Source: Tubulanus polymorphus
Taxonomy: Eukaryota; Animalia; Nemertea
Length of the DNA stretch: 64,000 nt
Direction: 5' to 3'
NCBI RefSeq assembly: GCF_964204645.1
Contig: NW_027437441.1
Location: forward strand, 62,001-126,000
Under the pieces are notes generated by a model. The model was given only the letters and a program-made list of their open reading frames with translations. It searched no databases and was not told the origin of the DNA. Shown piece by piece: positions 7,590-45,703 of this stretch. Within the stretch, counting starts at the first letter, position 1. Every line of letters begins with the position of its first letter. The position numbers were made by a program, and so were the translations under genes.

Positions 7590-7598
7590 TTATTTTAG

Positions 7599-9033: not shown

Positions 9034-9038
9034 TTATT

Positions 9039-9210
9039 AGGGTTTTCTGTTATTTCACAGAAAACCCTATTTCTATTCCGCGTGATTATTATAAGGGTTT
9101 TCTGTTATTTCACAGAAAACCCTATTGATATCCGCATGATTATTATTAGGGTTTTCTGTTATTTCACAGAAAACCCTATTGATATCCGCGTGATTATTAT
9201 TATTATTATT
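9039..9210 (+). repeat. Three tandem copies of the palindromic HINE 5' head (~55 bp)
   Basis: agggttttctgttatttcacagaaaaccctatt repeated three times. Confidence 0.9.
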
Positions 9211-14822: not shown

Positions 14823-14823
14823 A

Positions 14824-16232
14824 TTTTTCAGTCCACTTGGGACTTTAGTCCCAGCGGGCTATTGCGTTCACTTTTCGTCCGTCCGTCCGTCCATAGACGG
14901 AATCCAGTTATTTTGGGAAGTTTTGAAGACGCTTCAAGGTAATGTCTTGATATTTGGTTTATACATGTATCTACCCTAGACACATCGTCAGCCCAAAAAC
15001 TGGCCCTGTCAGATTCAAGATGGCCGACTGGCAGCCATTGTTGTTTGCCAAAATCAGCACTTTTTAAACATTTTCGAAGTTTTCGTGGGAAATTTTGAAG
15101 ACGCTTCGATCAATTACCTTGATCTTTCGTTTATATTTGAATCTACCAAAGGCCCATCAGCATAATAAAATTGGGTCGATCTGACTCAAAATAGCCGTCC
15201 TATGACCTTTTTAGTTCCCAAAAATGTAAATTTTGGCCAGAATTCTAGGTCCTGTAGCTTCCTACTGGTTTGCCATTTCTCATTGCAATTGCTGATGGGT
15301 ATTCTTTAGAGAGGGATTTTTTATACCTGGGACAGGTATTTTTGATCAGCCTATTATGACGCAATTGACGGCCATCTTGGTGTCATCAGTACTCATTCGT
15401 AGGTGGGAAAAAGTTTTTCCACATTAAATTGATACCTAAGCATATTGTGTTACTATATTCAATTGGAAAGTTGTAGCCCATAACGTGTTCTATGAGTTTC
15501 AAGGTCTTTGGTTTTAGTATGTGGCCATCAGGGGGCGTTGAATAATACAATAACTTAGTATTGCTATATTATATTTGTACCAAGGCATATTTTGTTACCA
15601 TGATCAATTGCGAAGTTGTAGTTCATGACATCGTCTATGATTGTGGTGAGTTTTTAAGTACATTAGTTATTCCATATAGTCATCAGGGGGCGTTGAATAG
15701 TAGAATGGCTTAGTATTTCCTTATTAGATTGGTACCTAGGCATATTTTGTTACCATGATCCATTGCAAAGTTGTAGATCATGACATCATCTATGATTGTG
15801 GTGAGTTTTTAAGGACATTAGTTATTCCATATAGTCACCAGGGGGCGTTGAATAGTAGAATGGCTTAGTATTTCCTTATTAGATTGGTACCTAGGCATAT
15901 TTTGTTACTATGATCAATTGCAAAGTTGTATTTCATGACATGTACTACGATTGTGGTGAGTTTTAAGGTCATTGGGTTTTGCATATGGTCACCAGGGGCG
16001 TTGAATAGTAGAATAACTTAGTATTTCCATATTAAATTGGTAACGAGGCATATTTTGTTATCACAATCGATTACAAAATCATAGCTGCTCAAATGTTCTA
16101 TGATTGTGGTGGGTTTCAAGGTCATTGGTTTTTGTATATGGTCACTAGAAGGCGTTATGTATTGAAATTGTTAGATTGTTGAGCATTTGAAACCACTTCC
16201 CAAGTGAGCATGGTGTCCCTGGACCCCTAGTT
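14824..16232 (+). mobile_element. Second HINE/DINE-1-like family nested in the satellite, with ~155-bp internal tandem repeats
   Basis: subTIR cacttggga / tcccaagtg, 5' hairpin gggact-tt-agtccc, (gtcc)n microsatellite, 3' gtcc-ct-ggac stem and ctagtt end; cagggggcgttgaata recurs every ~155 bp. Confidence 0.75.
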
Positions 16233-18062: not shown

Positions 18063-18478
18063 TACGAAAGCGATAAGGGGCCTCGAGATGTCGCGTTCCA
18101 ACTCGACAAGTCGCCATATTTATGTCGATATATCGCGATATATCGCGTCAAGTCGACATGAATATGTCGACATATCGTGACGTTTTCACGACAAATTTCG
18201 CTTTTTCGCCCATTTTCCACGGGACAAGCCGTCATTTGAAGGCACGTCTAAATGGAAGATGAGGAAACCAGTGAAATGACGACTGAGTTTCAAGTCGTCG
18301 TGAATATGTCGACTTGTCGCGTGGAAAGTGGTCGAGAGAACGAAATATATCGTCAAAACGTCACGATATATCGACATATTCATGTCGACTTGACGCGATA
18401 TATCGCGGTATGTCCACATAAATATGACGACTTGTCAAGTTTGAACGCGACATCTCGAGGCCCCTTATCGCTTCCGTA
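18063..18478. mobile_element. TAC..GTA MITE (~415 bp), IS3EU-like
   Basis: Long TIR tacggaagcgataaRgggcctcgag..; flanks gttaaa / gttaag; the empty site is visible near 20447. Confidence 0.75.
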
Positions 18479-19461: not shown

Positions 19462-19866
19462 TACGGAAGCGATAAAGGGCCTCGAGTTGTCGCGTTCAAA
19501 CTCGACAAGACGCCATATTTATGTCGATATATCGCGCCAAGTCCACATGAATATGTCTACATATCGTGACATTTTCACGACAAATTTCGCTTTTTGCTCA
19601 TTTTCCACGGGACAAGCCGTCATTTGAAGACATGTCTAAATGTAAGATGAGGACGCCAGTAATATGATGACTGAGTTTCAAGTCGTCATGAATATGTCGA
19701 CTTGTCGCGAGGAAAATGGTTGCGAAAACGAAATATGTCGTCAAAACGTCACGATATATCGACATATTCATGTCGACTTGACGTGATATATCACGGTATG
19801 TCGACATAGATATGGTGACTTGTCGAGTTGGAATGCGACATCTCGAGGCCCCTTATCGCTTCCGTA
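19462..19866. mobile_element. TAC..GTA MITE copy
   Basis: Same TIRs; gatatag duplicated on both sides; empty site near 53456. Confidence 0.8.
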
Positions 19867-21088: not shown

Positions 21089-22384
21089 CGTGGTTTTGTC
21101 GGAACATTAAGTTTTTTGGTCGAACAGTGTGTTAAGGTCGTTTTGGAAATTTACTCGGTCTGGTATATTTTGGATTACTGTGTATGTCATTTGTCAGGAC
21201 ATTAAACAGAAGACGACTTAGGATACTACCTTGCGTGACTCCACTAGTTAGACCGTCTCATTCCGAGATGAGGCGTTCCGTTGATTTCGGTTACAAGTTT
21301 CCGTTCAGAGATAACTGCTGAGCCATTTTAACGACCTATCATTGATACTGTTTCCTAATAGCCTTTTTAGTAATGGCTGATGTTGAGCCTTATCAAATGC
21401 TTTGTTGAAACCCACCGTTGAACAGGATTCTAAGACTGTGCAGAAAACCCGTTATCGCTGCTTTGCAGCTATATTTATTATTATTATTATTATTATTATT
21501 TTTTTCCACACTTTTTTTGTCAAAAGTAAATAGGCTTTTTTACATTACCGCTGTTGCCGATACAATCCGTCTGATATCATTCAGCCCACTTCGATCTACA
21601 AATACTCCGTGCGAATTGTGAAGAATCAACGTTACAAAAGCACTGTCGGGCCGTAAACATCGAAAATTGAGCCCCATTCAAAGAGCCGACATGTTTTTCT
21701 AAGTCGTCTTTCCGAAATCTACCGCACGTTTCTTGTCACATCGATTATCAATTCAAGCATAAATTAACAAATTTATTACCGAAAGATTGCACATTCTGTC
21801 GCGGTTTTTAAAAACTAATTTTTACAGTAACCCATTTTCCTCATCAAATTATATTACTGATACACAGGAAATTTACTACTTTAGATTTTAAAAGCACTGT
21901 CGAGCCGTAAACATCGACGAATCGACGTGTGTCACTACATCGTCGTTCCGGGAATCAGCTGCGAGTTTCTCCTCATTCTGAGAAACGAATCGAGTACAAA
22001 TTAATTTATTACTACCAGTGATTTGGCTGCGGGCGTCAAGCAGTTAATTTAGCAATACCTATTTTTCTTTACCAAATTTACCGTGTTTTTACTAAGATAA
22101 ATCATTAGTGTACCGGGGAGTCGTAGGCCTAAACTAAACACGCCGAAGAGATATAGCGGAGAAAAGCTGTTATGTCGACGAGGTATCAAAATGAAATAAT
22201 ATATTACTTTATTCGGCCGCGGGCTTCAACCTCTATATCAATACCATCAATACTCTATATTTCCTACAGTACATACCGATCATTGTCAATTGCACAAGGC
22301 ATTTACTAAATACAAGTATATAACACACTCCTCTCCGTATGCTGGAGTCACACTTGAAATTTGGAGTAAGCCTTTGACATTATT

Positions 22385-24692
22385 ATTTTGGTTTTATCGC
22401 CCGCGACAATTCATTACTTTGGTTTTATCGCCAGCGACAATTCATTATTTTGGTTTTGTCGCCCGCGACAATTCTTCTTTTTGGTTTTGTCGCCCGCAAA
22501 AATTCAATATTTTGGTTTTATGGCCCACGAAAATTCATTACTTTGGTTATTTATCGCTAGCGACAAATCATTATTTTGGTTTTGTCGCCCGCGACAATTC
22601 TTCTTTTTGGTTTTGTCGCCCGCGACAATTCATTATTTTGGTTTTATATTTTGTGTTTGTCGCCCGCGACAATTTTCTTTTTTGGTTTTGTCGCCCGCGA
22701 CAATTCAATATTTTTGTTTTATCGCCTGCGACAATTCAATATTTTGGTTTTAACGCCCGCTAAAATTCATTATTACTGTTTAATCGCCCGCGACAATTCA
22801 TTATTTTGGTTTTATATTTTGTTTTTGTCGCCAGCGACAATTTTCTTTTATTGGTTTTGTCGCCCGCGACAAATAAATATTTTGGTTTTATCGCCTGCGA
22901 AAATTCAATATTTTGGTTTTATCGCCCGCGATAATTCCTTATTTTGGTTTTGTCGCCCGCGACAATTCACCATTTTGGATTTGTCGCCCTGGGCAATTCA
23001 CCATTTTGGTTTTGTCGCCCGCGACAATTCATAATTTTGGTTTTATCGCCTGCGACAATTCAATTTTTTGGTTTTGTCGCCCGCGACAATTCATTATTTT
23101 GGTTTTATATTTTGTGTTTGTCGCCCGCGACAATTTTCTTTTTTGGTTTTGTCGCCCGCGACAATTCAATATTTTTGTTTTATCGCCTGCGACAATTCAA
23201 TATTTTGGTTTTATCGCCCGCGATAATTCCTTATTTTGGTTTTGTCGCCCGCGACAATTCACCATTTTGGATTTGTCGCCCTGGGCAATTCACCATTTTG
23301 GTTTTGTCGCCCGCGACAATTCATAATTTTGGTTTTATCGCCTGCGACAATTCAATTTTTTGGTTTTGTCACCCGCGACAATTCATTATTTTGGTTTTAT
23401 ATTTTGTGTTTGTCGCCCGCGACAATTTTCTTTTTTGGTTTTGTCGCCCGCGACAATTCAATATTTTTGTTTTATCGCCTGCGACAATTCAATATTTTGG
23501 TTTTATCGCCCACGATAATTCATTATTTTAATTTTGTCGCCTGAGACAATTCATTATTTTGGTTTTATCGCCCGCTAAAATTCATTATTACGGTTTAATC
23601 GCCCGCGACAATTCATTATTTTGGTTTTATATTTTGTTTTTGTCGCCAGCGACAATTTTCTTTTATTGGTTTTGTCGCCCGCGACAAATCAATATTTTGG
23701 TTTTATCGCCTGCGAAAATTCAATATTTTGGTTTTATCGCCCGCGATAATTCATTATTTTGGTTTTGTCGCCCGCGACAATTCATTATTTTGGTTTTGTC
23801 GCCCGCGACAATTCTTTTTTTGGTTTTGTCGCCCGCGACAATTCATTACTTGGGTTTTGTCGCCCGCGACAATTCAATATTTTGGTTTTGTCGCCCGCGA
23901 CAATTCATTATTTTGCTTTTATCGCCCGCAACAATTCATTAATTTGGTTTTATCGCCCGCTAAAATTCATTATTACGGTTTTATCGCCCGCGACAATTCA
24001 TTATTTTGGTTTTGTCGCCCGCGACAATTCATAAGTTTGGTTTTATCACCCGCGACAATTCACCATTTTGGATTTGTCGCCCTGGGCAATTCACCATTTT
24101 GGTTTTGTCGCCCGCGACAATTCATAATTTTGGTTTTATCGCCTGCGACAATTCAATTTTTTGGTTTTGTCGCCCGCGACAATTCATTAGTTTGGTTTTG
24201 TCGCCCGCGACAATTCATTATTTTGGTTTTGTAGCCCGCGACAATTCATTATTTTGGTTTTATCGCCCGCGACATTTCAATATTTTGGTTTTATCGCCCG
24301 CGATAATTCATTATTTTGGTTTTTCTCGCCCGCGACAATTCATTATTTTTATTTTGTCGCCCCGACAATTGTTTTTTTGGTTTTGTCGCCTGCGACAATT
24401 CATTAGTTTGGTTTTTTCGCCCACGACAATTCATTACTTTGGTTTTATCTCCAGCGACAATTCATCATTTTGGTTTTGTCGCCCGGGACAATTCTTCTTT
24501 TTGGTTTTGACGCCCGCGACAATTCATTATTTTGGTTTTATATTTTGTTTTTGTCGCCAGCGACAATTTTTTTTTTGGTTTTGTCGCCCGCGACAATTCA
24601 ATATTTTGGTTTTATCGCCCACGACAATTCATTAGTTTGGTTTTATCGCCCGCGACAATTCATTAGTTTGGTTTTGTCGCCCGCGACAATTC
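22385..24692 (+). repeat. 31-bp satellite with a ~292-bp higher-order duplication
   Basis: Same monomer; the variant block at 22913-23204 recurs at 23205-23496. Confidence 0.95.
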
Positions 24693-26077
24693 TTTTTCAG
24701 TCCACTTGGGACTTTAGTCCCAGCGGGCTATTGCGTTCACTTTTCGTCCGTCCGTCCGTCCATAGACGGAATCCAGTTATTTTGGGAAGTTTTGAAGACG
24801 CTTCAAGTTAATGTTTTGATATTTGGTTTATACATGAATCTACCCTAGAGACATCGTCAGCCCAAAAACTGGCCCTGTCAGATTCAAGATGGCCGAGTGG
24901 CAGCCATTGTTGTTTGCCAAAATCAGCACTTTTTAAACATTTTCGAAGTTTTCGTGATCTTTCGTTTATATTTGAATCTACCAAAGGCCCATCAGCATAA
25001 GAAAATTGGGTCGATCTGACTCAAGGTGGCCGTCCTATGACCTTTTTAGTGCCCAAAAATGTCAATTTTGGCCAGAATTCTAGGTCCTGTAGCTTCCTAC
25101 TGGTTTGCCATTTCTCATTGCAATTGCTGATGGGTATTCTTTAGAGAGGGATGTTTTATACCTGGGACAGGTATTTTTGATCAGCCAATTATGACGCAAT
25201 TGGCGGCCATCTTGGTTTCATCAGTACACATTCGTAGGTGGGAAAAAGTTTTTCCACATTAAATTGATACCTAAGCATATTGTGTTACTATATTCAATTG
25301 GAAAGTTGTAGCCCATAACGTGTTCTATGATTTTGGTGAGTTTCAAGGTCATTGGTTTTAGTATGTGGCCATCAGGGGGCGTTGAATAATACAATAACTT
25401 AGTATTGCTATATTATATTTGTACCAAGGCATATTTTGTTACCATGATCAATTGCAAAGTTCTAGTTCATGACATCGTCTATGATTGTGGTGAGTTTTTA
25501 AGGATATTAGTTATTCCATATAGTCACCAGGGGGCGTTGAATAGTAGAAAAGCTTAGTTTTTCCTTATTAGATTGGTACCTAGGCATAGTTTGTTACCAT
25601 GATCCATTGCAAAGTTGTAGTTCATGACATCGTCTATGATTGTGGTGAGTTTTTAAGGACATTAGTTATTCCATATAGTCACCAGGGGGCGTTGAATAGT
25701 AGAATGGCTTAGTATTTCCTTATTAGATTGGTACCTAGGCATATTTTGTTACTATGATCAATTGCAAAATTGTATTTCATGACATGTACTACGATTGTGG
25801 TGAGTTTTAAGGTCATTGGGTTTTGCATATGGTCACCAGGGGGCGTTGAATAGTAGAATAACTTAGTATTTCCATATTAAATTGGTAACGAGGCATATTT
25901 TGTTATCACAATCAATTACAAAATCATAGCTACTCACATGTTCTATGATTGTGGTGGGTTTCAAGTTCATTGGTTTTTGTATATGGTCACTAGAGGGCGT
26001 TATGTATTGAAATTGTTAGATTGTTGAGCATTTGAAACCACTTCCCAAGTGAGCATGGTGTCCCTGGACCCCTAGTT
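24693..26077 (+). mobile_element. Second copy of the nested HINE-like family
   Basis: Near-identical to 14824-16232, with the same downstream satellite variant. Confidence 0.75.
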
Positions 26078-26340: not shown

Positions 26341-27836
26341 GGTTTTGTCGGAACATTAAGTTTTTTGGTCGAACAGTGTGTTAAGGTCGTTTTGGAAATT
26401 TACTCGGTCTGGTATATTTTGGATAACTGTGTATGTCATTTGTCAGGACATTAAACAGAAGACGACTTAGGATACTACCTTGAGTGACTCCACTAGTTAG
26501 ACCGTCTCATTCCAAGATGAGGCGTTCCGTTGATTTCGGTTACAAGTTTCCGTTCAGAGATAACTGCTGAGCCATTTGGGCGACCTATCATTGATACTGT
26601 TTCCTAATAGCCTGTTTAGTAATGGCTGGTGTTGAGCCTTATCAAATGCTTTGTTGAAATCCACCGTTGAACACGATTCTAAGACTGTGCAGAAAACCCG
26701 TTATCGCTGCTTTGCAGCTATATTTATTATTATTTTCTTCCACACTATTTTTACTAAAAGAACAAAGGCTTTGTTACCTTGCCGCTGTTGTCGATACAAT
26801 CCGTCTGATATCATTCAGCTCACTTCGATCTACAAATACCCCGTGCGTATTTTGAAGAATCGTCGTTACAAAAGCACTGTCGGGCCGTAAACATCGAAAA
26901 TTGAGCCCCATTCAAAGAGCCGACATGTTTTTCTAAGTCCTCTTTCCGAAATCTACCGCACGTTTCTTGTCACATCAATTATCAATTCAAGCATAAATTA
27001 ACAAATTTATTACCCAAAGATTGCACATTCTGTCGCGGTTTTTAAAAACTAATTTTAACAATAGCCCATTTTCCTCATCAAATCGTATTACCGATATACA
27101 GGAAATTTACTACTTTAGATTTTAAAAGCACTGTCGAGCCGTAAACATCGAGGAATCGACGTGTGGCACTACATCGTCGTTCCGGGGATCAGCTGCGAGT
27201 TTCACCTCATGAGAATCAAATCGAGTACAAATTAATTTATTACTACCAGTGATTTGGCTGCGGGCTTCAAGCAGTTAGTTTAGCAATACCTATTTTTCTT
27301 TATCAAATTAACCGTGTAGCCTATTTACTAAGATAAATCATAAGTGTACCGGGGAGTCGTAGGCCTAAACGAAATACGCCGAAGAGATATAGCGGAGAAA
27401 AGCTGTTATGTCGACGAGGTATCAAAATAAAAGAATACATTACTTTATTCGGCCGCGGGCTTCAACCTCTATATCAATACCATCAATACTCTATAATTCC
27501 TACAGTACATACCGATCATTGTCAAATGCACAAGGTATTTACTAAATACAAGTATATAACACAATCCTTTCCGTATGCTGGACTCACACTTGACATTCGG
27601 AGTAAGCGTTCGCTGTGGGGGAAAGGAGATCGTTCGCTGTGTCGCTTGAAGTGTTTATCGAGTTTGACGCGGCTTTAGGCCTACCGGTACTGAGCTTTAC
27701 TGTCTCAAACGAACACAGTATAATTGTTGCGTTTATTAACGGACTCATTGGATTGAACTTCAAAACAAAATTTACGATATTTAGGAAGGTTGTTATTCAA
27801 TAGGCCTACGACCAATCTGTCCGGATGTTAGGCCTA

Positions 27837-28314
27837 AGTAATAGGGGTAATGGGCTTTCATACCAAAGGTCGAACGGTCGAGCTCATTAAAAAACAAAAC
27901 ATTAAAAGTAATTTAAAACTATAATATATTTTCATAAACGTGTGCATTTTATATTATAACTAAATATTTATTCTAAGATATCAATAATTTAAAAAGCATA
28001 TTATATTAAATCAATTGGTCGCTCCACTTCGCTACCGCTCCGCTCCGCGACCAATTGATTAATTTACAATACACACATTCATATAATCAAATATATTCAA
28101 ATAATAATAATATTCAACTGAAATGCACACGGTTATGAAAATATATTATAGTTTTAAATTACTTTTAATATTTGTTTTTAATGAACTCGACCATTCAACC
28201 TTTGATATGAAAGCCCATTACCCCTATTACTCTTAAAATAATCATATACATGAATAACATTTAAATTGACAGATTATTCAATATAAAAGTGTAAGCTCTT
28301 ATAGAATAGATATA
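27837..28314 (+). repeat. Left TIR of Polinton-2; 27837-28231 is itself a fold-back
   Basis: Reverse complement of 45704-46190 with a few substitutions and one small indel. Confidence 0.95.
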
Positions 28315-28464
28315 TAGATATATTTACAACATTATTTCAATATTCATATTTGTATGAGTTAGATTTTTAAACATTAAAAGTGTTAGTAAAGTGTGATTGA
28401 AATAATGCATAATATAAATCATTGAACTTCTAAAATCAATTTTAATAAAAAATTTAGTATTAAA

Positions 28465-28668
28465 ATGGAAGCAAATAAGTACTACTGCCCAACATGTAAT
28501 ATCAATATAGATAAATCCCAAAAAGCAAGACACAATAAAACTAAAACACATTTAGAGAATAAATTGAAACTAGAATATAAAGATGATATATTAGAAACTA
28601 AATTAGATGAATTAAAGAATGAAAAAGAAACATACATAGTGATAAAAGATATTATAATGAACATTTAA
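28465..28668 (+). pseudogene. C2H2 zinc-finger fragment, probably the frameshifted 5' end of the polymerase ORF
   Basis: YYCPTCNINI..ARHNKTKTH; a second finger remnant (EHLKSKSH) lies in the frame leading into 28692. Confidence 0.55.
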
Positions 28669-28691
28669 AATCCAAAAGTCATATTAGAAAT

Positions 28692-29408
28692 ATGAATAAT
28701 GATATTTTAGGTGAGGATTATATTGATAATGATAACGATAAGAAACATAAGACAATTAAAAGAATAAGAAATAAATTAAACAATAAAAGACCATACATGG
28801 AAGATGTAAGAAAATATATTAATTCATTAGATAATAAAAAAGATATAGAGATAACCGAAGCATTTAAAAGTGATATTGGCCCAGCAGCTATCGAGTTTAA
28901 ATTTCATAAAGGAAAAACATTAGAAGAAAATAAAAAACATTTAGAAAATATGAAAGAAATAATAAAAATAATAACTGATGTTGAATATCCTAAAATTAGT
29001 ATATCAGTTAAAGTTAAATTCATAAAATCTGAAGATAAACCAATATATAATATAAATTCTCATTCACAACATATTATATCTAAACAACATATAGATCATA
29101 AATTAGATAAATGTTGTAATGAAGTAAAAACTAAAATAGAAGAGAAATATTTTGAAGGATCAGGTTTGATATTTGATGAAATAATATCTATGACTTTACA
29201 TGTGTATAACACAAAATATAATAAGTTAACTAAATCAAAACCAATTGATGAAAATAATATATCATATTATAAAGAACCAGATATTGAAGCATCGAGTTAT
29301 ATTAAACTACCATTTAAAACTAATGCTGTTATGAATATACAAAATGAAGATGATAAATGTTTTCTATGGGCTATAATAAGTTGTTTACATCCAACAGAAG
29401 ATAATTAA
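28692..29408 (+). pseudogene. polB: Protein-primed family B DNA polymerase, N-terminal region (terminal-protein / OTU-like part)
   Basis: EGSG..SSYIKLP..NIQNEDDKCFLWAI motif typical of the Polinton pPolB N-terminus; followed by an apparent internal deletion. Confidence 0.75.
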
Positions 29409-29472
29409 TAATGAAATAGAAAGATTAAATTCAAATAGATCAAAAGATAAAATACCAACTTATAAATTTAGA

Positions 29473-29862
29473 ATGTTAGCTAAAACATCTGAGAATTATA
29501 TATCGTTCCAATTTGGTTGCCTAAGATTTATAGATTCATATAGATTTTTAAATAGTTCATTAGATAACTTATCAAAAGCATTTGTTGATGATGAATTAAA
29601 GATATTAAAACAACACTACCCAAATAATGATGATTTTCAATTAATGAGATATAAAGGAGCAATTCCATATTCATTTTATAAATCACATAATGATTTTAAC
29701 ATAACTGAATTATTGAAAGAACAATTCTATGATGAATTAAAAAATGAATATGTTAAAGATGAAGTCTATAATAGAACATTGAATATTTGGAATCATTTCA
29801 AAATAGAAAATCATGGGCAATTAGTAGATTTATATTTAAAAAATCAGATGTATTATTATTAA
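29473..29862 (+). pseudogene. polB: pPolB exonuclease-domain fragment
   Basis: LRFIDSYRFLNSSLDNL..KGAIPY..DLYL. Confidence 0.85.
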
Positions 29863-30539
29863 CCGATATATTCGAAAGGTTTAGAGATGTAAACCTAAAA
29901 TATTTTAACATTGATCCTTGTCATTGTTATTCATCACCAGGTTTAACATGGGATTGTGGATTAAAATTTACAAATATAAAAATGGATTTGTTAACAAATA
30001 TAGATCAATTATTATTATTTGAAAAATCTATAAGAGGAAGAGTTTCAGGTGTATTAGGTGATAGATATTTCAATGTAAATGATAACCCTGGATATAAGTT
30101 ATTATATATAGATGCAAATAATTTTTATGGTTGGGCAATGATGGAACCACAACCTTATGGAGTATTTGAATTAACTGAAGTTTTACAGAATGAAAATAAT
30201 GATAAATTTGATTGGAAGAAAAGAATCCTAGATATTGCAGATGATTCAGATACTGGTTACTTCTTTGTTGTAGACTTAGAATATCCTGAACATATTAAAT
30301 TTAAATCTAGAAATCTAGCATACTGTCCCGAACATAAAACTGTAACTCATGAAGAATTATCAAGTTATCAAAAAAGAATTAAACCCGAAAATCATATTCA
30401 TACAGAAAAGTTAATGGTAACTCAAGAAGATAAATTTAATTATGTAGTACATTATAGAATGTTAAAGTTTTATTTGAATCAAGGAATGATTCTAAAAAAG
30501 TACATAGATATATTTCATTTAGTCAATCTAAGTGGTTAG
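29787..30539 (+). pseudogene. polB: pPolB palm fragment (motif A)
   Basis: DVLLL.DIFE.FR, SSPGLTWD, YIDANNFYGWAM; frameshifts in A-runs on both sides. Confidence 0.9.
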
Positions 30540-30613
30540 AAAAATATATAGATTTTAACACCAAACAGAGAACTGAAGCTAAAACTGATTTCGAGAAAGA
30601 TTTCTTCAAGTTA

Positions 30614-31444
30614 ATGAATAATGCATTCTATGGTAAGACTTGTGAAAATATTAGAAATAGAAATGATATTGAGTTAGTCAGTAATGGTAAAAGAATTAGA
30701 CATTTACAAACATATCCTAAGTTCATTGGTAACAGAATATTTGATGAAAATTTAGCCGCAGTTAAGATGAGAAGAACATCAATGAAATTTAATAAACCAA
30801 TCTATGTTGGCGCTTCAGTTTTAGAATTATCAAAATTACTAATGTATGAATTCTATTATAATGTATTACAACCACTTTTTGGAGAAAAACATATAGAAAT
30901 ATTATATTTTGATACTGACAGTTACATATTAAAGATAAAAACTGATAACATAACTGATGATTTAAAAACATTAAAACGTCATTTTGATTTTAGTAACTAT
31001 CCTAAAGATCATGAATTGTTTAGCAATGATAATAAAAAAGTTCCCGGTAAATTCAAAGATGAATTAGGTGGTGAAGAAATGATTGAATTCATAGGTATTC
31101 GATCTAAAATGTATTCATATAAAACTAAAGAACATGAAGCTAAAAAGTTAAAAGGAATAACCAAAAATGTAGTAGAAAAGAATATTCATTTCAAAGATTA
31201 CATCAATTGTATATTCAATGAAGAAGTTAGAAAACATAAGATGAGATGTTTAAGATCTGAAGATCATGAAATGTTTATTGAAGAAATTGAAAAGATAAGT
31301 CTAAACCCATTTGATGATAAAAGATATATTCTGGATGATGGAATTCACACAGTTGCTTATGGTTGTAATTTAGATGAATACTTAAAATTTAAAAGAGAAG
31401 AAACAAAAGAGAACGAGATAATGAAAAGAATTCTAACGTGTTAA
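30614..31444 (+). pseudogene. polB: pPolB C-terminal fragment (motifs B and C)
   Basis: (KL)MNNAFYGKT, YFDTDS, GKFKDE, KMY, KLKGI, DDKR. Confidence 0.92.
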
Positions 31445-31473
31445 TCAAATTTTAATAAAAATATGTTATTAAA

Positions 31474-31827
31474 ATGGAGAGTAAACAAGCACACAGTGAG
31501 AACAACAAATTATTTCTAGATAGAATTAAAGATATAACAAATGTAAAATCTGTAGATTATAAATTCAAAAAGTTAAAAGAATTAACAATCCATAAGAAAT
31601 ATCTAATTACAAATATTGATACAGTTAGTAATAACTATGGAGATAAATTAGTTATACACTTAGAATATGAAGGATTAAAAGGAAATACATATAAATTCAG
31701 AACATATTTACCGGATAGATTTCATAGATTATCAAGTGAAGATTTAGAAGAATTATGTTCTGGAGATTTCTATTTCGTATACAAAGGTAAGAATGAAAAG
31801 GGGCACCATGAAATAGATTTCGAATAA
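31474..31827 (+). CDS. Small Polinton protein after polB, possibly OB-fold / ssDNA-binding
   Basis: Intact 117-aa ORF with its own AT-rich leader; the pattern FKKLKEL..Y.I....YG..V.L..YLP.RF; the fold is inferred. Confidence 0.55.
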   Translation: MESKQAHSENNKLFLDRIKDITNVKSVDYKFKKLKELTIHKKYLITNIDTVSNNYGDKLVIHLEYEGLKGNTYKFRTYLPDRFHRLSSEDLEELCSGDFYFVYKGKNEKGHHEIDFE

Positions 31828-31844
31828 GAAAATATGTAAAATAA

Positions 31845-32063
31845 ATGGTAGAATTAAAAGAATACAGAATATTTGTTGATTCTAGAAGACTTACAAATTA
31901 TAAATCACATAATTTAAAAGTTCAATTAGATAGAGAATTTAAGAATTGTGTTGATTTAAAATTAGTTAATATAAGTTTATGTAATTCTTTTTACAATATA
32001 TCGAATAAAACTGTTGAACATAGAGCTTTTTTAATTTTTGATAAAAATAAAAATGAATTCTAA
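31845..32063 (+). pseudogene. Minor capsid protein (penton), N-terminal stub
   Basis: IFVDSR..L..QLDREFKN..L.NISL.NSFYNI resembles penton N-termini; cut off by the piggyBac junction near 32058. Confidence 0.65.
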
Positions 32064-33249
32064 AAAGAAAACAGTCAGAACTCCATTTTTCAATGAAACC
32101 ATGCCTCGTGATCGATTTCTGCTGATATTGAAATTTTTTCATTGTAACGACAACGATGCTCGTCCTGGTGACAACCAGGATCGGTTATACAAAGTCCGCC
32201 CTGTCTATGATCACCTCACACGCAAATTTACCGAAGTTTACACGCCCACGGAACATTTATCATTAGACGAAGGGGTGTTGAAGTGGCGCGGGAGACTAGT
32301 GTTCCGTTGTTATAACCCCCAAAAGCCCGAAAAATATGGAATGAAGTCGTACATGGTATCGGAATCCGAATCTGGGTATTTGTACAGTTTTAGTCTCTAT
32401 TGTGGCATGAACCGGAATGTTCCTACCATATGTGATGATACCCTACAGCCTTTATATGGTAAGAACTATAAAGTTTACATGGATAACTTCTACAATAGCA
32501 GGAAGGTATCCCAGCACTTGCTCAATAATAGGACTCACACATGCGGAACTGTTCGTATAAACCGCGGTCTTCCAAAGGCGCTTGTTCAACAAAGCAAAGA
32601 ACTTCGACGTGGCGATGTCGCTTTCCGTCAAAAGGATGGAATAATGTTTCTGCTATGGCTAGATAAGAGACTGGTAAAAATGGTATCCACTTTACATGAT
32701 TCTTCTATGGCAGAAACAGGTAAACAGGATAAAGATGGAAATCTGATTAGAAAACCGCAATGCATAATTGATTATAACCATTTTATGTCTGTTGTGGACC
32801 ACTGTGATCAGATGTTGCGTTATTATCCGTGTGTTTTGAAAACTGTGAAATGGACAAAAAAATTAGTACTATATCTCATTCATCTATCAGCAGTGAACAG
32901 TTATTTCCTGTATCAAAAGAATCCCAATAAGGACAAACTTCATCTTCTGGAATTTTTGGAGCGTATAATTGAATCTATGGCTGAACTTGCGGGTGAAGTT
33001 CCCGTGGGACATCAGGCCAATAGGGGACCACAGGGAGATCCAGTTACAAGGCTTACAGGAGGGGCAGCTAATCATGCATTTGTTTTGATCCCCCCTACTG
33101 CCAAGAAACAAAACCCAACCAGAGTATGCAGGGTTTGCTCAAAAAAGGGCATGAGAAGCGAGTCTAGATATATGTGCCGCAACTGTGAAACCCCCCTTCA
33201 TCCTGAATGTTACTCTGCATATCACTCCAAAAAGATTTACTGGGTGTAA
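32038..33249 (+). CDS. piggyBac transposase (PGBD4-like), 5'-truncated
   Basis: MPRDRF, SLDE, KYG.K, MDNFY, CGTVR.NR, W.DKR.V, YN.FM..VD..DQ, and a C-terminal CxxC..CxxC..H cysteine-rich domain; GC content higher than the Polinton. Confidence 0.93.
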   Translation: MIKIKMNSKKKTVRTPFFNETMPRDRFLLILKFFHCNDNDARPGDNQDRLYKVRPVYDHLTRKFTEVYTPTEHLSLDEGVLKWRGRLVFRCYNPQKPEKYGMKSYMVSESESGYLYSFSLYCGMNRNVPTICDDTLQPLYGKNYKVYMDNFYNSRKVSQHLLNNRTHTCGTVRINRGLPKALVQQSKELRRGDVAFRQKDGIMFLLWLDKRLVKMVSTLHDSSMAETGKQDKDGNLIRKPQCIIDYNHFMSVVDHCDQMLRYYPCVLKTVKWTKKLVLYLIHLSAVNSYFLYQKNPNKDKLHLLEFLERIIESMAELAGEVPVGHQANRGPQGDPVTRLTGGAANHAFVLIPPTAKKQNPTRVCRVCSKKGMRSESRYMCRNCETPLHPECYSAYHSKKIYWV

Positions 33250-33410
33250 AATATCATAAAACCAAAGAATTAAAGACAAGAGTAAGGTAAGACATTATTT
33301 TTTCTTCATTTATTGCTCTTTTATTGAAGGACTACAAAATTTAACATTTTTTGGAAAAAACGTTAGCACAGGGGTATATACGCATTTCTAAAATTTCAGC
33401 AGTCAAAGTG
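32058..33410 (+). mobile_element. piggyBac-A, right portion, ending ..gcagtcaaagtg + TTAA
   Basis: TTAA at 33411-33414 corresponds to the uninterrupted TTAA at 37385-37388; left end absent. Confidence 0.85.
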
Positions 33411-33436
33411 TTAATTCAAGATTATAATACCATGAA

Positions 33437-33895
33437 TCATTTTTTAAATTCTAAATTATTCGTGAAATATGGGTCATCTTTAAAAATTTGTTCTACAACA
33501 TCTTCAGTATCAATTTCATCTATTACAACTTTTGGTAATAATTCGTTAACAATTGTATCTGTTACTCTAGATTTCATACTATATAATTCCATAGGTTTAT
33601 CAGGATATTTTTCTTGTTGTTTTACTAATAGTTCCATAAATTCTTTTCTTTCTGTTCTAGTTGAAATTCTACCACTTTCAGGAGCTTTTAAATATTTATT
33701 TAATTTTTCACGTAATTCGGAATTAATTCCATCATAATCATCATCATAATCATCATCTTCACCTAAATTAGTATTATATTCTGGCTCATTACCATCATTA
33801 AAACTTGTTTCACTAAAATCAGGTTGTGGTTCATCACTTATACCGGGGGTGTCACCAAAAGGATCCAATGGAAAACCTTCTCCACCTTCTGCCAT
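33437..33895 (-). pseudogene. Inverted duplicate of the 5' part of the acidic/membrane protein gene
   Basis: Matches 36900 onward; cut by piggyBac-A. Confidence 0.75.
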
Positions 33896-33914
33896 TTACA
33901 TAATACAAAAATTA

Positions 33915-35272
33915 AAATTTAAAATATAATATTCCTCCGATTACAATTCCTATACAAGTTATAGCTAATTTAGTATTTTCATGGGATTTATTATCATTAT
34001 CAGTTTTAATTATATCATGTTGATGTATTGTAATCTTTTATTTTAGAATCATTATTTAATTTAATATTCTTAGTTTTAGTTTCTGTTGATTGAATGTGTT
34101 TTTTATTTTTTACACCTTCCATTAATTTTGGAGGAGTAATAATCTTTTTATTTATATCATTCAATCCAAATGAATTATTTATTGTTGCAGTTTTAATTAG
34201 ATTATTATAACCAATTATGTTTCCCATCTTTAATACTAAATCATTAGAAATAATTAATAGATTAGGGCCTATACAATAATTTAATCTAATATGTGATTTA
34301 TCTAAATAATTTTGATATCTTACAATGTTTTCTGGAATCGATCTATTTTTATCATTATGTATGGAATCTTCAAATAAAACTTTAAATTGTTTTTGTGTAT
34401 CGAATGATGTATTCAAATTTCCAATTATTGGGGATCTTGTTTCAACTTGCGCACCTAAAATACATCAAATAAGTTCTAATTGATTGATTTATTTTTTGTA
34501 TTCCGGCTTTAGTAAAACCTTCATTATTTTCTAAAATGAAATAAACCCAACCATTATTGTTTTCTTGTTTTAAATTATCATAAAATGTCGGTAATTTATT
34601 GAAATTTAATGTTTCTAAATCCTTAGTTTCTATTTTACCATAACCTAATTTATTACTATAGATATTATACAAACTATAAGATGGTATGGGAAGTGCACAA
34701 TATTCTGCAATCTTTTTAGGGCAAGGAAGTGATCTTATTGTTCCAATTTTTGTTCTAAAATCAGAATTATTTATATCTATATTAAATTCATTACAAATTT
34801 TATAAAACTTTGATAAATTAATATTATTATCTAATTCTTTAAAATACCTAGATCCTGGTAAAGCGCACTCTAATTCATTTAATATTATTCTGATTTGAAA
34901 GTATGTATGAAATCTAAATAAACTTTGAATTAATTTATATTTATAATTATTCAAATGATCATTCCAACTAATTCCACAACCTGTTGTTGCACAATAAACA
35001 GCAAAATTTAATTGGTTCTGCCAATACTTCATATTAGATTTTAATAACCACTGTTTTTCATCTTTCAATTTTTTAAAATCAATTAAATATACATGAAATA
35101 TATTTTCCATCTTTGCATTAAAATTATTAGTTTCAGTAACATAAATTACTAAATTAGTTAATGAATCTAAAACTTCATTTCTATATGTAATATCTTTATT
35201 AAAATCTATTGCTGGAATATTATATTTAATTGATTTATTATATTGGAAAGCTTTTGGAAAACTATCTACCAT
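33915..35272 (-). pseudogene. WQNQLNF-motif protein of Polinton-2 (ORFs 34442-35272 and 34015-34416), frameshifted
   Basis: Colinear with 104-1405. Confidence 0.75.
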
Positions 35273-35289
35273 TTATTTAATAAAAAAAT

Positions 35290-35722
35290 TAATAATTTAT
35301 TAATTCTTTTAATAATTTATCTTGTTCTTCAACTGTTATATGACCATTTAAACTTATTATATAATCTAGTGTGTTCTTTAATTTATTAATTTCTTTTATA
35401 TTAGTTTTAATTTTTCTTTATTACTTTTTATATTTAATTTTGAACTTATACCAGTTAAAACACTTGAACTTAATCCTAACACACCAATTGATATAGCTAA
35501 AGGTGTTAATGGACTGAATATTGCTAGAAATGTTATTACAGAACTAATTGTAACCGAACCACTTATAATCAAATAATATATAATTTTACTTTTTAGATAT
35601 TTTTTCTTTTTAACTTTTAAGTCACTTTCAAATTCTAATATTTGTTTTTCTAAATATGTTTTTAATTTAGTTTTATTTATATCATGAGGAATAATATCAA
35701 TATTATCAACTTTATCTTCCAT
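35290..35722 (-). pseudogene. Small two-transmembrane-helix protein (ORF 35396-35722, C-terminus frameshifted)
   Basis: IIYYLIISGSVTISSVITFLAIF and LAISIGVLGLSSSVLTGI; the 3' end matches positions 1-88 of Polinton-1. Confidence 0.65.
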
Positions 35723-36899
35723 TTATTTAGCAAAAAAAAATTACTAATTAGTAAACTTATATGCTACAAATATAACAATAACAGTTCCACCTAAATTCCA
35801 TATTATTTCATATTTCTTCTGTTCATTACTTTGGGTATAATAATCTGATAATTTAGGTTTGTATAGATGTAATTTTTCTTTATTTGTTACTGCGTTATAT
35901 AAACTCATTGCATCAATAAAGAATTATATGATCAGAAGATTTCACACAGAGATTTTCAATCAGTTGATGATGCAATGAGTTTATATAACGCAGTAACAAA
36001 TAAAGAAAAATTACATCTATACAAACCTAAATTATCAGATTATTAAAATTGGAACAATAAGATCACTTCCTTGCCCTAAAAAGATTGCAGAATATTGTGC
36101 ACTTCCCATACCATCTTATAGTTTGTATAATATCTATAGTAATAAATTAGGTTATGGTAAAATAGAAACTAAGGATTTAGAAACATTAAATTTCAATAAA
36201 TTACCGACATTTTATGATAATTTAAAACAAGAAAACAATAATGGTTGGGTTTATTTCATTTTAGAAAATAATGAAGGTTTTACTTAAGCCGGAATACAAA
36301 GAATAAATCAATCAATTAGAACTTATTTGATGTATTTTAGGTGCGCAAGTTGAGACAAGATCCCCAATAATTGGAAATTTGAATACATCATTCGATACAC
36401 AAAAACAATTTAAAGTTTTATTTGAAGATTCCATACATAATGATAAAAATAGATCGATTCCAGAAAACATTGTAAGATATCAAAATTATTTAGATAAATC
36501 ACATATTAGATTAAATTATTGTATAGGCCCTAATCTATTAATTATTTCTAATGATTTAGTATTAAAGATGGGAAACATAATTGGTTATAATAATCTAATT
36601 AAAACTGCAACAATAAATAATTCATTTGGATTGAATGATATAAATAAAAAGATTATTACTGCTCCAAAATTAATGGAAGGTGTAAAAAATAAAAAACACA
36701 TTCAATCAACAGAAACTAAAACTAAGAATATTAAATTAAATAATGATTCTAAAATAAAAGATTACAATACATCAACATGATATAATTAAAACTGATAATG
36801 ATAATAAATCCCATGAAAATACTAAATTAGCTATAACTTGTATAGGAATTGTAATCGGAGGAATATTATGTTTTAAATTTTAATTTTTGTATTATGTAA

Positions 36900-38621
36900 A
36901 TGGCAGAAGGTGGAGAAGGTTTTCCATTGGATCCTTTTGGTGACACCCCCGGTATAAGTGATGAACCACAACCTGATTTTAGTGAAACAAGTTTTAATGA
37001 TGGTAATGAGCCAGAATATAATACTAATTTAGGTGAAGATGATGATTATGATGATGATTATGATGGAATTAATTCCGAATTACGTGAAAAATTAAATAAA
37101 TATTTAAAAGCTCCTGAAAGTGGTAGAATTTCAACTAGAACAGAAAGAAAAGAATTTATGGAACTATTAGTAAAACAACAAGAAAAATATCCTGATAAAC
37201 CTATGGAATTATATATATAGTATGAAATCTAGAGTAACAGATACAATTGTTAACGAATTATTACCAAAAGTTGTAATAGATGAAATTGATACTGAAGATG
37301 TTGTAGAACAAATTTTTAAAGATGACCCATATTTCACGAATAATTTAGAATTTAAAAAATGATTCATGGTATTATAATCTTGAATTAAATAGGAATACTG
37401 TATCAATTCAATTATCTAGAATGGGTCAAGAAAATATTTTTGAACCTGGAATGCGAGCATTATCTACAATTGAAGGTTCAAAAGGTGGTAGAGAATTTCT
37501 CAGAATTATATGGAATGCAATCGATAGAATAAATGAAGAAGAACCAATTCCTAATATTGATATAAACAAATATTCACCATTTAAAAATCCAAATCCAAAT
37601 CCTACTGATGTTGATCCAGAAACTGATGAAGATTTTGCAAATCGATTAGATAAATTAAGATCTTCAACGCCCGAAACATCGAGAAGAGACACTCAACAAA
37701 TTGATAATGATTCAAGTCAATTACAATTAACATTTGAAAAACAAATTGATAGATTAAGAGATTCAGAAGAACTGATGAATAGTATATCAGATACATCTGG
37801 TTCTGAAACTGGAATAAATCGAATACAATCTTTACTAGAAAAAGGATTACTTGATTTAACTGATGAAGAATTAAAACAATTTCCTGAAAAAGCACGTAGA
37901 GAAATTAAAGGTATGCAAGAATCAGCTGGTGAAATTGCTAATATTATGATGAGATTTTCTAAAATAACCATGTTAGAAAAAGAATTAACTAATGCAAATG
38001 AAGAATTAAAACAATTAGAATTAAATAGAGATCTTCAATTAATCGAGGAAGCTGATTATGAAAGCAGAAAGTTAGCTTTAGAAAAAGAAATAGATGATTT
38101 AAAATATAACAAAGAATTACAGGAAAAAGAAAGAGATACATTATTAAAATCATATGATCTTAATCATTTTAAATAATTAAAAGTTATTTTTAAAGATTTG
38201 TTGATCAGATTCTAAAATATCATTGAAAGATAGAATAAAGTTATTATTTGAATTAGAAGGAATAACAATTCTTTCAATTCTAACAGCTGTAACTATGTTA
38301 TTTACAACAATTGGTTTAGCAATATCAAATGCTTTAAAATCTATGCCTACTCCCAATAAACCGGATAAACCCCCAGATAATAATTCTATACAAGATAAAG
38401 TTAAAGATGGTTTAAAGAAATTAGCAAAATATTTATGGGAACTATCTAAAAAATCTGTTGCAGCTTTACCAGGAATTATTGCATCAATTGTTGGTTTTAT
38501 ATTGAAATCTGCTGGGAATATTCTTAACTTTGCTGCTGAACATATTATTTTATTTTTAATTACAGTTGTAAGTGCTATTATTTTTGGGTTAGTAAATATG
38601 ATATCAAAAAATATCAAGTAA
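36900..38621 (+). pseudogene. Acidic / coiled-coil / two-hydrophobic-helix membrane protein, broken into 36900-37220, 37421-38176 and 38223-38621
   Basis: Frameshifts in short runs; same architecture and C-terminus as 1429-2871. Confidence 0.7.
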
Positions 38622-38661
38622 ACATGATCAAAAATAAATAATTAATTTTTTTGTTAAATAA

Positions 38662-39909
38662 ATGAGTGGGAGTTATATCAATCCTTCTAAGAATCATAGA
38701 ATATCTAATGCTATTAAAGCAGAAAGATCTCATCATATAATTACTAATAACCCTTCTAATATTAATCCTGATGAAACTTTATATGTTAGAATCCATCGAT
38801 TAACACAAAATACTTTTTACGTTCCAAATAGTATTTATTTATCAGCCGATATAAAAGTAATCGGTAATAATAATAATTATGTTGTTGATAATGTCGGAAG
38901 ATATTTGATTAAAAAATTAACAATAAAGATTGGTCCAGAAACAGTTTTCTCATTAGATGATTATAATTTATTCATGCATTATAAAGATTTATGGTTAACT
39001 AAAGAAAATAGAAATAATATGATATTTCAGGGCATTCAATCGGAAAACCATAATAAATTAAGATCAGGAGCTAATGACGCAATAGTAACTCGTGCCACAG
39101 ATAATTTGATTAAAAAGATTTATGGAAGCAAATATAAAATTCCATTAGACTTTGAATTGATAAATAATAATGCACCTTTATATACATACGCAATTCAAGA
39201 AGATATTATATTTGAGATAACATTCGCTCCTGTAAATGAAATTGTATTATCTAGCGTTGTTAAAGATATGAGTTATAAATTATCGAATATATGTTTAGAA
39301 TATGATACAGTAACTGATGAAAATATTGCTAACACAATTCAAACTCAATACAATCAAGGATTTTCATTATTATATGATTATATTGATAAATTTAAAACTG
39401 TAACTATCAATGCAAATGATGAAATAATCAATGAGAATATTAACTTCCCAAGAAGATCTATTAAAGGTATATTAATATTTTTTACCATTGCAACATATAC
39501 TAATGGCGCAATAAATGTTGATAATTATTATAATCCTGAAATAACAAAAGTAAAAATAACTATCGAAGGAATAGCAAATAAAATATTTTGTCAAGGAATG
39601 AGAATGATAGATCAATGGCCAGAAATTAGAAAACATTTTACGAATGAAAAAGTAAAATCATCTGAAGATTGTAATATTAATCAAATTGATTATTATACCG
39701 GTAATAAATATGCATTATGGTTAGATTTTAGAACAACAGAGGATAACTTATTACATGGTTCTGGAAAAAAATTACAGAACACTAAAGATGGAATACAATT
39801 ATTCATGACAAAGAAAAAGGGAAGCCTAAATTTCAAAATGCATATTTATATTATATCTGACGCGCAATTAAATATTGTAAATTCACAATTAGATAGTGTT
39901 ATGTATTAA
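38662..39909 (+). CDS. Major capsid protein of Polinton-2
   Basis: Intact 415 aa, roughly 90% identical by eye to 2892-4139. Confidence 0.75.
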   Translation: MSGSYINPSKNHRISNAIKAERSHHIITNNPSNINPDETLYVRIHRLTQNTFYVPNSIYLSADIKVIGNNNNYVVDNVGRYLIKKLTIKIGPETVFSLDDYNLFMHYKDLWLTKENRNNMIFQGIQSENHNKLRSGANDAIVTRATDNLIKKIYGSKYKIPLDFELINNNAPLYTYAIQEDIIFEITFAPVNEIVLSSVVKDMSYKLSNICLEYDTVTDENIANTIQTQYNQGFSLLYDYIDKFKTVTINANDEIINENINFPRRSIKGILIFFTIATYTNGAINVDNYYNPEITKVKITIEGIANKIFCQGMRMIDQWPEIRKHFTNEKVKSSEDCNINQIDYYTGNKYALWLDFRTTEDNLLHGSGKKLQNTKDGIQLFMTKKKGSLNFKMHIYIISDAQLNIVNSQLDSVMY

Positions 39910-39941
39910 AATTTTAACTTTAATAAAAAATCTTATATTAA

Positions 39942-40766
39942 ATGGAAGGAGGTAAAGTATATAAACATATTTCATACATCGATACACATGAAAATAATGA
40001 TGGTTTATATTATGTAATACCTTGTAATATAGCTTTGATATTTGATCCTATTTTCAAAATTTATAAAACTAAACTAATAGAAATCGATAATAATAAAAGT
40101 GGTGTTGTTGATAATTTAAGTAATGTAATTGATAATAATGTAATACCTCCTACTACAGTAATACCTACTACAGTAATACCTACTACATCTAATAATGTAA
40201 AACCTACTACATCTAATAATGAAATAATATTAAATTTTAGTGAAAATAGAAATTATTGTGATTATTGTAAAGGTGAATTTTCAAACGCTCCATCAAATTG
40301 GAATAAACATATGAATACAAAGGTACATATTACTAATGTTATAGAACGTGTTGGTTTAAGAGAATTTATAGAACACCCATTTAGATATGTTACAAAATTT
40401 GTTTCAAATAAAAAAGTAAATGGTAAAGAATTATATGAAGATTTTTTATTAGCAACACCTAATAAAGATGAATTAGATTTAACCGATGCTAATAAAATAT
40501 TAGGATCATACACTGTAAATGAAATATTAGGAGCAAACACTAATAAAGATGATAATGAAAATGGCGCCATACGGCACCCACATGGTGATATAGTTACAGA
40601 TATTGATATTAAAGATTATGTGGACACACTTTTGGTGAAAGATAAAGAAGAAACTTTTGATGATGCGGTAGAAAGGATGAATAAGTATAACAATAAAACA
40701 ACTATTGATGATGATACGGTAGAGAGTTTGAATAAATTGTTAGGGTCTGATAGTGAAAGTGATTAA
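39942..40766 (+). CDS. Zinc-finger protein (YCDYC..NWNKHMNTKVH) with PTT repeats
   Basis: Intact 274-aa ORF with a TAAATG start. Confidence 0.65.
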   Translation: MEGGKVYKHISYIDTHENNDGLYYVIPCNIALIFDPIFKIYKTKLIEIDNNKSGVVDNLSNVIDNNVIPPTTVIPTTVIPTTSNNVKPTTSNNEIILNFSENRNYCDYCKGEFSNAPSNWNKHMNTKVHITNVIERVGLREFIEHPFRYVTKFVSNKKVNGKELYEDFLLATPNKDELDLTDANKILGSYTVNEILGANTNKDDNENGAIRHPHGDIVTDIDIKDYVDTLLVKDKEETFDDAVERMNKYNNKTTIDDDTVESLNKLLGSDSESD

Positions 40767-41190
40767 GATATTAATTATATTTTATTCAAATAATAATATT
40801 AGTTGAAAATTGTATAAAATAATAGAAAATAAAAAGGGGGTTTTAAGTATTTAAGGTATTTAAGGTATCTAATACATATCTAATACATATTATTTGAAAA
40901 TACCTTAAATAATATTTCTTTTTTAAATTTATGTTGAAACCTCAGTAATAATAAATAACCTTTATTATTTTCAAACTTATTCATATATTAGTTGAAATAA
41001 TAAAAATAAATTGGTTGAAAATTGTATAAATAATATTTATTTTAAAAAAGGGGGTTTTAAGTATTTAAGGTATCTAATAGGGTATCAGGTATTAGGGCAT
41101 CTAATAGGGTATCTAATACATAGGTATTCATGAATAACATATAAATGAATAACTTCTAAAATCAATTTAGTAAAAAAATATGTATAATAA

Positions 41191-43968: not shown

Positions 43969-43974
43969 AATAGA

Positions 43975-45696: not shown

Positions 45697-45703
45697 CTAT
45701 TTG

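Follow-up and report, generated by a model that had tools for sequence, protein, structure and literature searches.

Polinton/Maverick elements are 13–25 kb long, with TIRs of 100–1500 bp and target-site duplications (TSDs) of 5–8 bp. Replication of Polintons has so far only been modelled, as protein priming combined with a whole-genome panhandle, and the standing model places the protein priming on a racket-like single strand (PMC4196379). The Polinton terminal protein (TP) is described as an LF/PAD fold with a serine or tyrosine located between helix 2 and strand 4 (PMC11161782). The terms 'hairpin' and 'palindrom' are absent from the main texts of PMC8097293 and 10.1101/2023.08.22.554363, and the available portions of PMC11296320, 10.64898/2026.10.13.758929 and 10.1101/2022.07.28.501842 add nothing on folded ends. 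Terminal palindromes and the idea of hairpin priming are already known for protist virophages and PLVs. In Halocafeteria seosinensis, TIR palindromes adjoin the TSDs of endogenous virophages (subtypes 1, 2, 5 and 6) and of PLV subtype 4, and hairpin priming has been proposed for them (10.64898/2026.07.28.741278). Casposons are also self-synthesising PolB elements with palindromic sequence inside some TIRs; they differ from the element described here in being prokaryotic and in using a Cas1 integrase, and their palindromes are described only as internal (PMC4046053).

The window analysed here is a 64,000-nucleotide stretch of DNA from the nemertean Tubulanus polymorphus, and it features a Polinton of 18,354 bp (18.4 kb, 27837–46190) whose two ends fold back on themselves. 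The end structure itself is real, selected-looking and well supported as structure. The preferred reading, which is given a probability of about 50%, is that it may be a single-strand end structure, apparently selected, that serves protein priming, end protection and repair, and that works, by analogy, like the telomeres of Streptomyces. The palindrome within the TIR, its position beside the TSD and the RVE-integrase element that carries it are features in common with Halocafeteria. The palindromes there belong to a protist host and to mostly non-pPolB elements and measure 52 nt (subtype 5), whereas the fold-backs here measure 90–404 nt and belong to an animal-type Polinton with a TP-bearing pPolB. 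The palindrome section of that report is silent on strand bias and co-variation and contains no test of orientation (10.64898/2026.07.28.741278). New here is a canonical pPolB animal Polinton with such ends, together with strand-biased wobbles, co-variation of the arms and a fixed orientation; long strand-biased fold-backs in animal Polintons did not come up in a literature search of sources other than subscription papers, Repbase entries and supplements. A conserved, strand-specific end structure names a concrete cis-element and its working strand, and it carries the record of terminal palindromes beyond protist non-pPolB elements into an animal family with many copies.

The Polinton is bounded by the TSD GGCCTA at 27831–27836 and 46191–46196 (plus strand) and by a left TIR of 513 bp (27837–28349, plus strand) and a right TIR of 519 bp (45672–46190, minus strand) that are 94.9% identical. 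Its size, TIR length and 6-bp TSD all fall within the Polinton/Maverick ranges, and its ends, AGTAAT//ATTACT, are one mismatch from the vertebrate motif (AGT)2//(ACT)2. The genes lie on the plus strand. A broken pPolB copy with frameshifts (28465–31444), from which the relatives' residues ~327–684 are absent, includes a terminal-protein-like domain recognised by predicted fold and alignment within the ORF at 28692–29408. The major capsid protein (38662–39909) is a predicted double jelly-roll (model pLDDT 89) with the PBCV-1 capsid as its top match (E 3e-16). An ORF at 41191–41841 has HNH-like motifs by eye and an atlas score of 0.86–0.88 to HNH clusters, which is a lead only. An rve integrase-chromodomain and an A32 packaging ATPase share one frame at 43975–45696, with Pfam matches (rve E 4e-9, Pox_A32 E 4.5e-10) that exceed the curated cut-offs. 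A DDE_Tnp_1_7 transposase at 32053–33249 (plus strand, Pfam PF13843, E 1e-65), which is presumably piggyBac-like, is inserted outside the Polinton core. The Pfam scan of 17 ORFs gave no match for 11 of them and no minor capsid protein or maturation protease among the 17, and a 276-aa ORF had no atlas match. The TIRs, 6-bp TSD, AGT...ACT ends, TP-fold pPolB, rve integrase, A32 ATPase and double jelly-roll capsid are those of Polintons/Mavericks (PMC11161782; PMC8097293; 10.1101/2023.08.22.554363). The differences are that most of each TIR is fold-back, that the end reads AGTAAT and not (AGT)2, and that the 17 ORFs yielded no separate maturation protease.

The window also contains related and rearranged sequence. 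Inside the Polinton, 33411–34750 and 36045–37388 form a 1.34-kb inverted duplication of 99.3% identity that flanks an inverted 1.3-kb core; it stems either from a recent rearrangement of fold-back type or from a join in the assembly. Positions 1–9039 contain another Polinton of this family (84–93% DNA identity), which is truncated and has no ends in the window. Its integrase-chromodomain and ATPase also share one frame (5760–7037), the integrase-ATPase block is inverted, and a repeat-built palindromic spacer lies at ~5390–5720 between convergent genes. In relatives the ATPase is a ~200-aa protein and the gene order is very variable.

The pPolB was recovered as five collinear pieces that are 67–84% identical to a relative of 1365 aa that has Exo and Pol A/B/C motifs and is one of three full-length relatives used (1319–1365 aa). 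The Pfam DNA_pol_B_2 match is weak (E 0.007), and a PDB sequence search with a full-length relative returned zinc fingers only. The N-terminal piece is predicted to form a sheet and two helices, with pLDDT >90 over the core. Its top eight structural matches are Y-family polymerases (little-finger domain), the best of them with Z 8.4 and an rmsd of 2.9 over 103 aligned positions, a Z near 8 being borderline by the tool, and its top viral match is an adintovirus protein. Ser157, in a G-S-G located between helix 2 and strand 4, is found in 55 of 57 aligned sequences. The fold and the position of the serine match the description of the Polinton terminal protein, and the protein-priming part is thus conserved in the clade, with Ser157 as the candidate priming serine. 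The three full-length relatives all have vOTU Cys and His motifs (by eye), of which the window copy holds the Cys part only. The same three (P0241–P0243) feature an endonuclease VII-like HNH insert at residues ~590–650, between exonuclease motifs I and II, with Pfam E values of 2e-4 to 1e-2 that are below the curated cut-off; an HNH-type insert in the polymerase recalls the pPolB2 group. VSR cuts at G:T mismatches. A link to the VSR domain of mollusc pPolB2 was considered and rejected, as Pfam gives an endonuclease VII-like and not a VSR insert in the three relatives.

Fold-backs are located at 27837–28231 (395 nt), at 45787–46190 (404 nt) and, at an orphan end, at 55053–55243 (191 nt). At both ends of the full element the fold-back begins at the first base, adjoining the 6-bp TSD, and occupies about three quarters of the TIR. 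In the left fold, a ~112-bp stem carrying a 2-nt bulge leads through an internal loop into a 14-bp stem, which is capped by a GC-rich tip of 24 nt. The coordinates given in an earlier note, made from the letters of the window, are exact, and the design that it described is confirmed. The predicted DNA energy is −116.9 kcal/mol for the minus strand and −111.8 for the plus strand. The z-score of about −23 on either strand, with 0 of 100 shuffles as good, rules out a fold-back by chance. The left outer arm (27837–27949, plus strand) starts at the element's first base and is C-type; the left inner arm (28121–28231, minus strand) is T-type, with T:G pairs on the 3'-end strand at 28205, 28197, 28193, 28185 and 28170. 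The right fold-back (plus strand) has T:G pairs at 45813, 45821, 45825, 45833, 45848 and 45893 and its tip at 45981–46004. A motif common to all arms is present once in each of them, which makes six copies in the window where none is expected, and the family-specific spellings that the earlier note had pointed out are seen in both arms.

The orphan is a right-type end of a sister subfamily (plus strand), with T:G pairs at 55082, 55090, 55098, 55102 and 55132 and with TIR-like sequence that extends inward to ~54846. It had been taken for the end of the Polinton whose genes lie at 1–9039. The shorter fold-back of the same design was found as described; the connection with those genes was rejected, since the window contains no partner end that has the orphan's flank. 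The 14-bp inner stem and tip of the left end (28009–28060, minus strand; tip 28023–28046) are purine-rich on the 3'-end strand and contain two GCGGAGC motifs. Such GNA-loop motifs at the tips are suggestive only, because GCGNAGC is not enriched window-wide (6 against 5.15 expected, 4 of the 6 being in the two tips, which are copies), because the orphan tip has no such motif, and because the complement of a GNA loop is described as about as stable (PMC5449611). A change at 28026, found in 35% of reads, creates a further GNA motif.

The mismatches in the stems are not symmetrical between the strands. At 8 of 8 sites with distinct transitions, the 3'-end strand has an inner T paired with an outer G. 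These sites are at offsets 27, 35, 39, 47 and 64 from both ends of the full element, at offset 109 of its right end, and at offsets 27, 35, 43, 47 and 77 of the orphan, where 43 and 77 are specific to the orphan. One C:A pair is located at the stem edge (offset 114), the few transversions are mostly in the orphan end, and the first 26 bp of the stem pair perfectly in the full element. Nine other inverted repeats in the window gave 31 G:T against 31 A:C, a count that omits two Polinton-internal repeats (1:2 and 3:0) and becomes 35:33 with them. The Fisher test gives p 0.007, or 0.035 when the stem-edge C:A is counted; the wobble sites are inherited, so 8 is the upper count of independent events and both values overstate independence. 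The strand-specific wobbles proposed in the earlier note are thus biased to the 3'-end strand beyond chance. The accompanying statement that C>T differences recur in all three ends applies to offsets 27, 35 and 47 and not to the others. The predicted energy gap between the strands is modest with DNA parameters, 5–10 kcal/mol of 68–120, and larger with RNA parameters, 23–39 kcal/mol; the small DNA value counts against the preferred reading.

A single wobble class would fit a constrained outer arm with tolerated C-to-T changes in the inner arm, and it would equally fit directional damage. The latter belongs to a decidedly unlikely account in which a strand-displacing polymerase made the inner arm through errors of fold-back copying, occasional conversion maintains the likeness of the arms, and C-to-T/A-to-G damage on an exposed strand left wobbles without selection on structure. 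All eight window sites are of one class, as directional mutation would give, and three of the eight are CpG. The recent 1.34-kb inverted duplication in the element, a hairpin length that ranges from 90 to 404 nt, and accidental annealing, which is named as an alternative for the protist palindromes (10.64898/2026.07.28.741278), also speak for a by-product. However, conversion should erase the wobbles, and they persist across subfamilies while both arms change at the neighbouring offsets 25 and 26. In ordinary strand displacement it would be the 5'-end strand that stays exposed for the longest time, which would predict the opposite bias, and chromosomal decay gives balanced classes (31:31). Additionally, the unrelated end sequence of a distant relative, locus L054, has the same design.

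Variation among genomic copies was studied with a whole-genome read set of the same species label, from which 12.9 million reads (~12% of the run) were sampled and 8,997 unphased reads were placed on 27825–28275. Ahead of the outer terminus there are 2,783 loose-end reads with an agreement of 0.33–0.37, which indicates many insertion sites. An assembly artefact was considered and rejected, as the reads support both arms, many flanks and the TSD. The depth of the outer arm (~4,100–4,350) is about twice that of the inner arm (~2,000); the inner arm may therefore be missing or diverged in as many as half of the ends. Single reads span short fold-back versions of 90, 96, 101, 122 and 150 nt in which the terminal stem is retained. 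Recurrent deletions of 150–185 nt at 28240–28425, just inside the inner arm, show that TIR length varies among subfamilies.

The variants considered are the best 40 of 119, which reach down to ~22%. Among these 40, a complementary variant at the mirror position accompanies 7 of 13 outer-arm variants (offsets 11, 16, 25, 26, 78, 105 and 109), with p 1.5e-5 by permutation of positions. A one-base insertion is also mirrored in both arms (27914/28151). The proposed co-evolution of the arms is borne out by these reads, with the limit that 140 of the 8,997 fit two places and that cross-mapping between arms can mimic co-variation. The reads reveal a ninth T:G site at 28204 (49%), for which no outer change is found among the best 40 of 119 variants. 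The bias holds in the window and is not universal among genomic copies: outer-arm T is present in 23% of reads at 27863, 28% at 27900 and 41% at 27945. These reads may come from subfamilies with Watson-Crick pairs, from inner arms mapped to the wrong place or from flipped ends.

The imperfect terminal hairpin with conserved mismatches and, in the predicted fold, a 3'-OH lying on template are features that the Polinton ends share with parvoviruses and poxviruses (PMC1185569; PMC8956199). Hairpin transfer swaps the arms, so flipped ends are expected from it; a flipped end would show G at 28205, 28197, 28193 and 28185 and host flanks behind 28231. No flipped variant was seen at the inner diagnostic sites among the best 40 of 119 variants, which places flipped ends below ~22%. 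No flipped loose end was seen at 28231 among the 6 of 186 positions listed, which corresponds to fewer than 281 reads against 2,783 (~10%) if the positions are ranked by support. Equimolar flip/flop is therefore not seen in these mostly integrated copies. The 17 ORFs include no Pfam match to a Rep/NS1 HUH nickase-helicase, 11 of them having no match at all, the terminal protein is conserved, and the element integrates with open ends and a TSD; in all these respects it differs from parvoviruses and poxviruses. With one dominant orientation, hairpin priming of the parvovirus/poxvirus type, which the earlier note had put forward as a possibility, is unsupported as the main reading. The same orientation test is repeatable in any genome with many copies.

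A rather unlikely variant of that proposal is self-priming, in which extension of the folded 3' end into the genome would make the second strand. Later the closed end would be opened asymmetrically, or the integrase would accept one orientation only, so that a single orientation is seen in integrated copies. The integrated copies could be a filtered subset, which leaves room for this variant. The predicted geometry is exactly that of a primer-template junction, and the flush 3'-OH on its inward-pointing template, as the earlier note had recognised, is a ready primer and a point against the preferred reading. Hairpin ends of a single orientation are described at the left termini of parvoviruses (PMC1185569), and conserved hairpin mismatches are functional in vaccinia (PMC8956199). 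The endonuclease VII-like HNH insert in three of three relatives is a possible resolving nuclease. Additionally, among 15 of 36 joints listed, strand-switch joints occur at mirror positions within the stem (27915/28155 with 7 reads and 27918/28152 with 9 reads); these 16 reads, however, are about 1% or less of a depth of ~1,900 and may be library artefacts. Against it, two equal orientations would be expected and one is seen in the variants and loose ends listed, the terminal-protein apparatus is conserved, the scan of 17 ORFs found no Rep/HUH, and the protist palindromes mostly accompany replicases other than pPolB (10.64898/2026.07.28.741278). A hybrid scheme is unlikely as well: the terminal protein would start the 5' ends, the T:G fold-back would prime the second strand, and the endonuclease VII-like domain of the polymerase would resolve the closed end asymmetrically, leaving one surviving orientation. 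If true, a single lineage of animal DNA viruses would link protein-primed with rolling-hairpin replication. Another possible role of the mismatches, by analogy with vaccinia, where they serve packaging (PMC8956199), would be packaging here.

The preferred reading, protein priming on a folded and protected end, takes the Streptomyces telomere as its works-like comparison. At these telomeres Tpg and Tap carry out protein priming on a folded 3' single strand. The sequence at its end pairs with an inverted copy farther in, the motifs of GNA loops (GCGGAGC) are present, and a truncated 3' end is repaired by fold-back templating, as demonstrated on a short terminal hairpin and not on long-range pairing (PMC5449611). 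Streptomyces differs in being bacterial and in having an internal origin, a Tap primase, several short palindromes and no family B polymerase (PMC5449611). The Pfam scan of 17 ORFs named no Tpg or Tap, and the Polinton has its own TP-pPolB, so the comparison is one of analogy without homology. In the Polinton, strand displacement from the far end, which is established for pPolB replicons, would free a full single strand. Its 3' end would snap back locally and would not await an 18-kb panhandle. TP-pPolB would then load on the protected, locally duplex end, prime on the terminal bases and displace the wobble-weakened inner arm, regenerating the same orientation in every round. A nibbled 3' end would be refilled from the inner arm, which would explain both the perfect first 26 bp and the changes common to the two arms. 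The pairs of inner T with outer G would preserve the fold of the 3'-end strand but weaken that of the opposite strand, so that a cruciform in the integrated duplex would be disfavoured, and they may mark the inner copy as a non-end for polymerase and integrase. The evidence for this mechanism is the structure, the bias, the co-variation, the orientation and the TP fold, and each priming step beyond these is inferred. End repair and a locally duplicated origin, which the earlier note had listed as alternatives to hairpin priming, both fit the data. Mapping of the ends would tell hairpin priming apart from protein priming that uses a folded end.

Relatives were collected by an ATPase profile search that yielded 83 loci, 80 of them from metagenomes (of 132 confirmed) and 3 from genomes. 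Most of the 83 have their ATPase in an internal position, and one reaches a recognisable end. TIR sequence gave short chance-level matches only among the 83 loci, the end motif had 0 matches in viral contigs, and searches of viral contigs with integrase-ATPase, capsid and ATPase confirmed no relative. A scan of the loci for AGT...ACT fold-backs gave 20 against 6–14 in shuffles, so only L054 was kept, as it is backed by an interrupted host frame. In L054, whose ATPase is 46% identical and whose end sequence is unrelated to that of the window Polinton, the host's reading frame extends to position 1179, where a 53-nt fold-back starting AGTAGTA takes over. The host frame, which we take to be hAT-like, has no Pfam match. 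The 3'-end strand folds better (−18.6 against −16.8), and two G:T pairs are present, one of each class. From its sequence, L054 is probably a Polinton end with the same strand direction, in one case. The terminal motif has a second, partial inner copy at 1252 (1180–1252), and an H-type lectin-like ORF (1319–1597, Pfam E 1e-3) follows and points towards the end on the wobble strand.

The genes beside the ends bear on a further account, which is highly doubtful. According to it, the fold-back is an RNA hairpin, a 3'-end or stability signal in a transcript that leaves via the end gene, and TIR homogenisation copies the structure to the other end. The integrase-ATPase gene, whose stop codon is 90 nt ahead of the right inner arm, has the wobble strand as its sense strand, the lectin-like ORF of L054 has the same direction, and the strand preference is greater with RNA parameters. 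Palindromes also follow an internal ATPase gene in several relatives; where the ATPase is internal, however, they have no clear bias (12:7 over 7 cases). An mRNA signal has no need of a stem flush with the element's last base, and the GNA-loop motifs of the tips are described as DNA structures (PMC5449611).

Palindromes lie directly past the ATPase in L001 (3013–3125), L003 (811–919), L005 (3554–3636), L016 (731–786) and L063 (1932–2004), often between convergent genes, and they are possible transcript-end signals. In the window itself, a large inverted duplication of ~98% identity (46476–52402 and 55967–62968) has at its centre MITE-like elements, a 31-nt array and the orphan Polinton end. 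The ~415-bp MITE-like family, which was used among the control inverted repeats, is found at 18063–18478, 19462–19866, 52506–52921 and 53599–54010 and is CpG-rich with long internal inverted repeats. Tandem arrays of a 31-nt unit and a 155-nt unit are located at 12967–15000, 22300–24900 and 52990–53370, and at 15403–15963 and 25247–25961.
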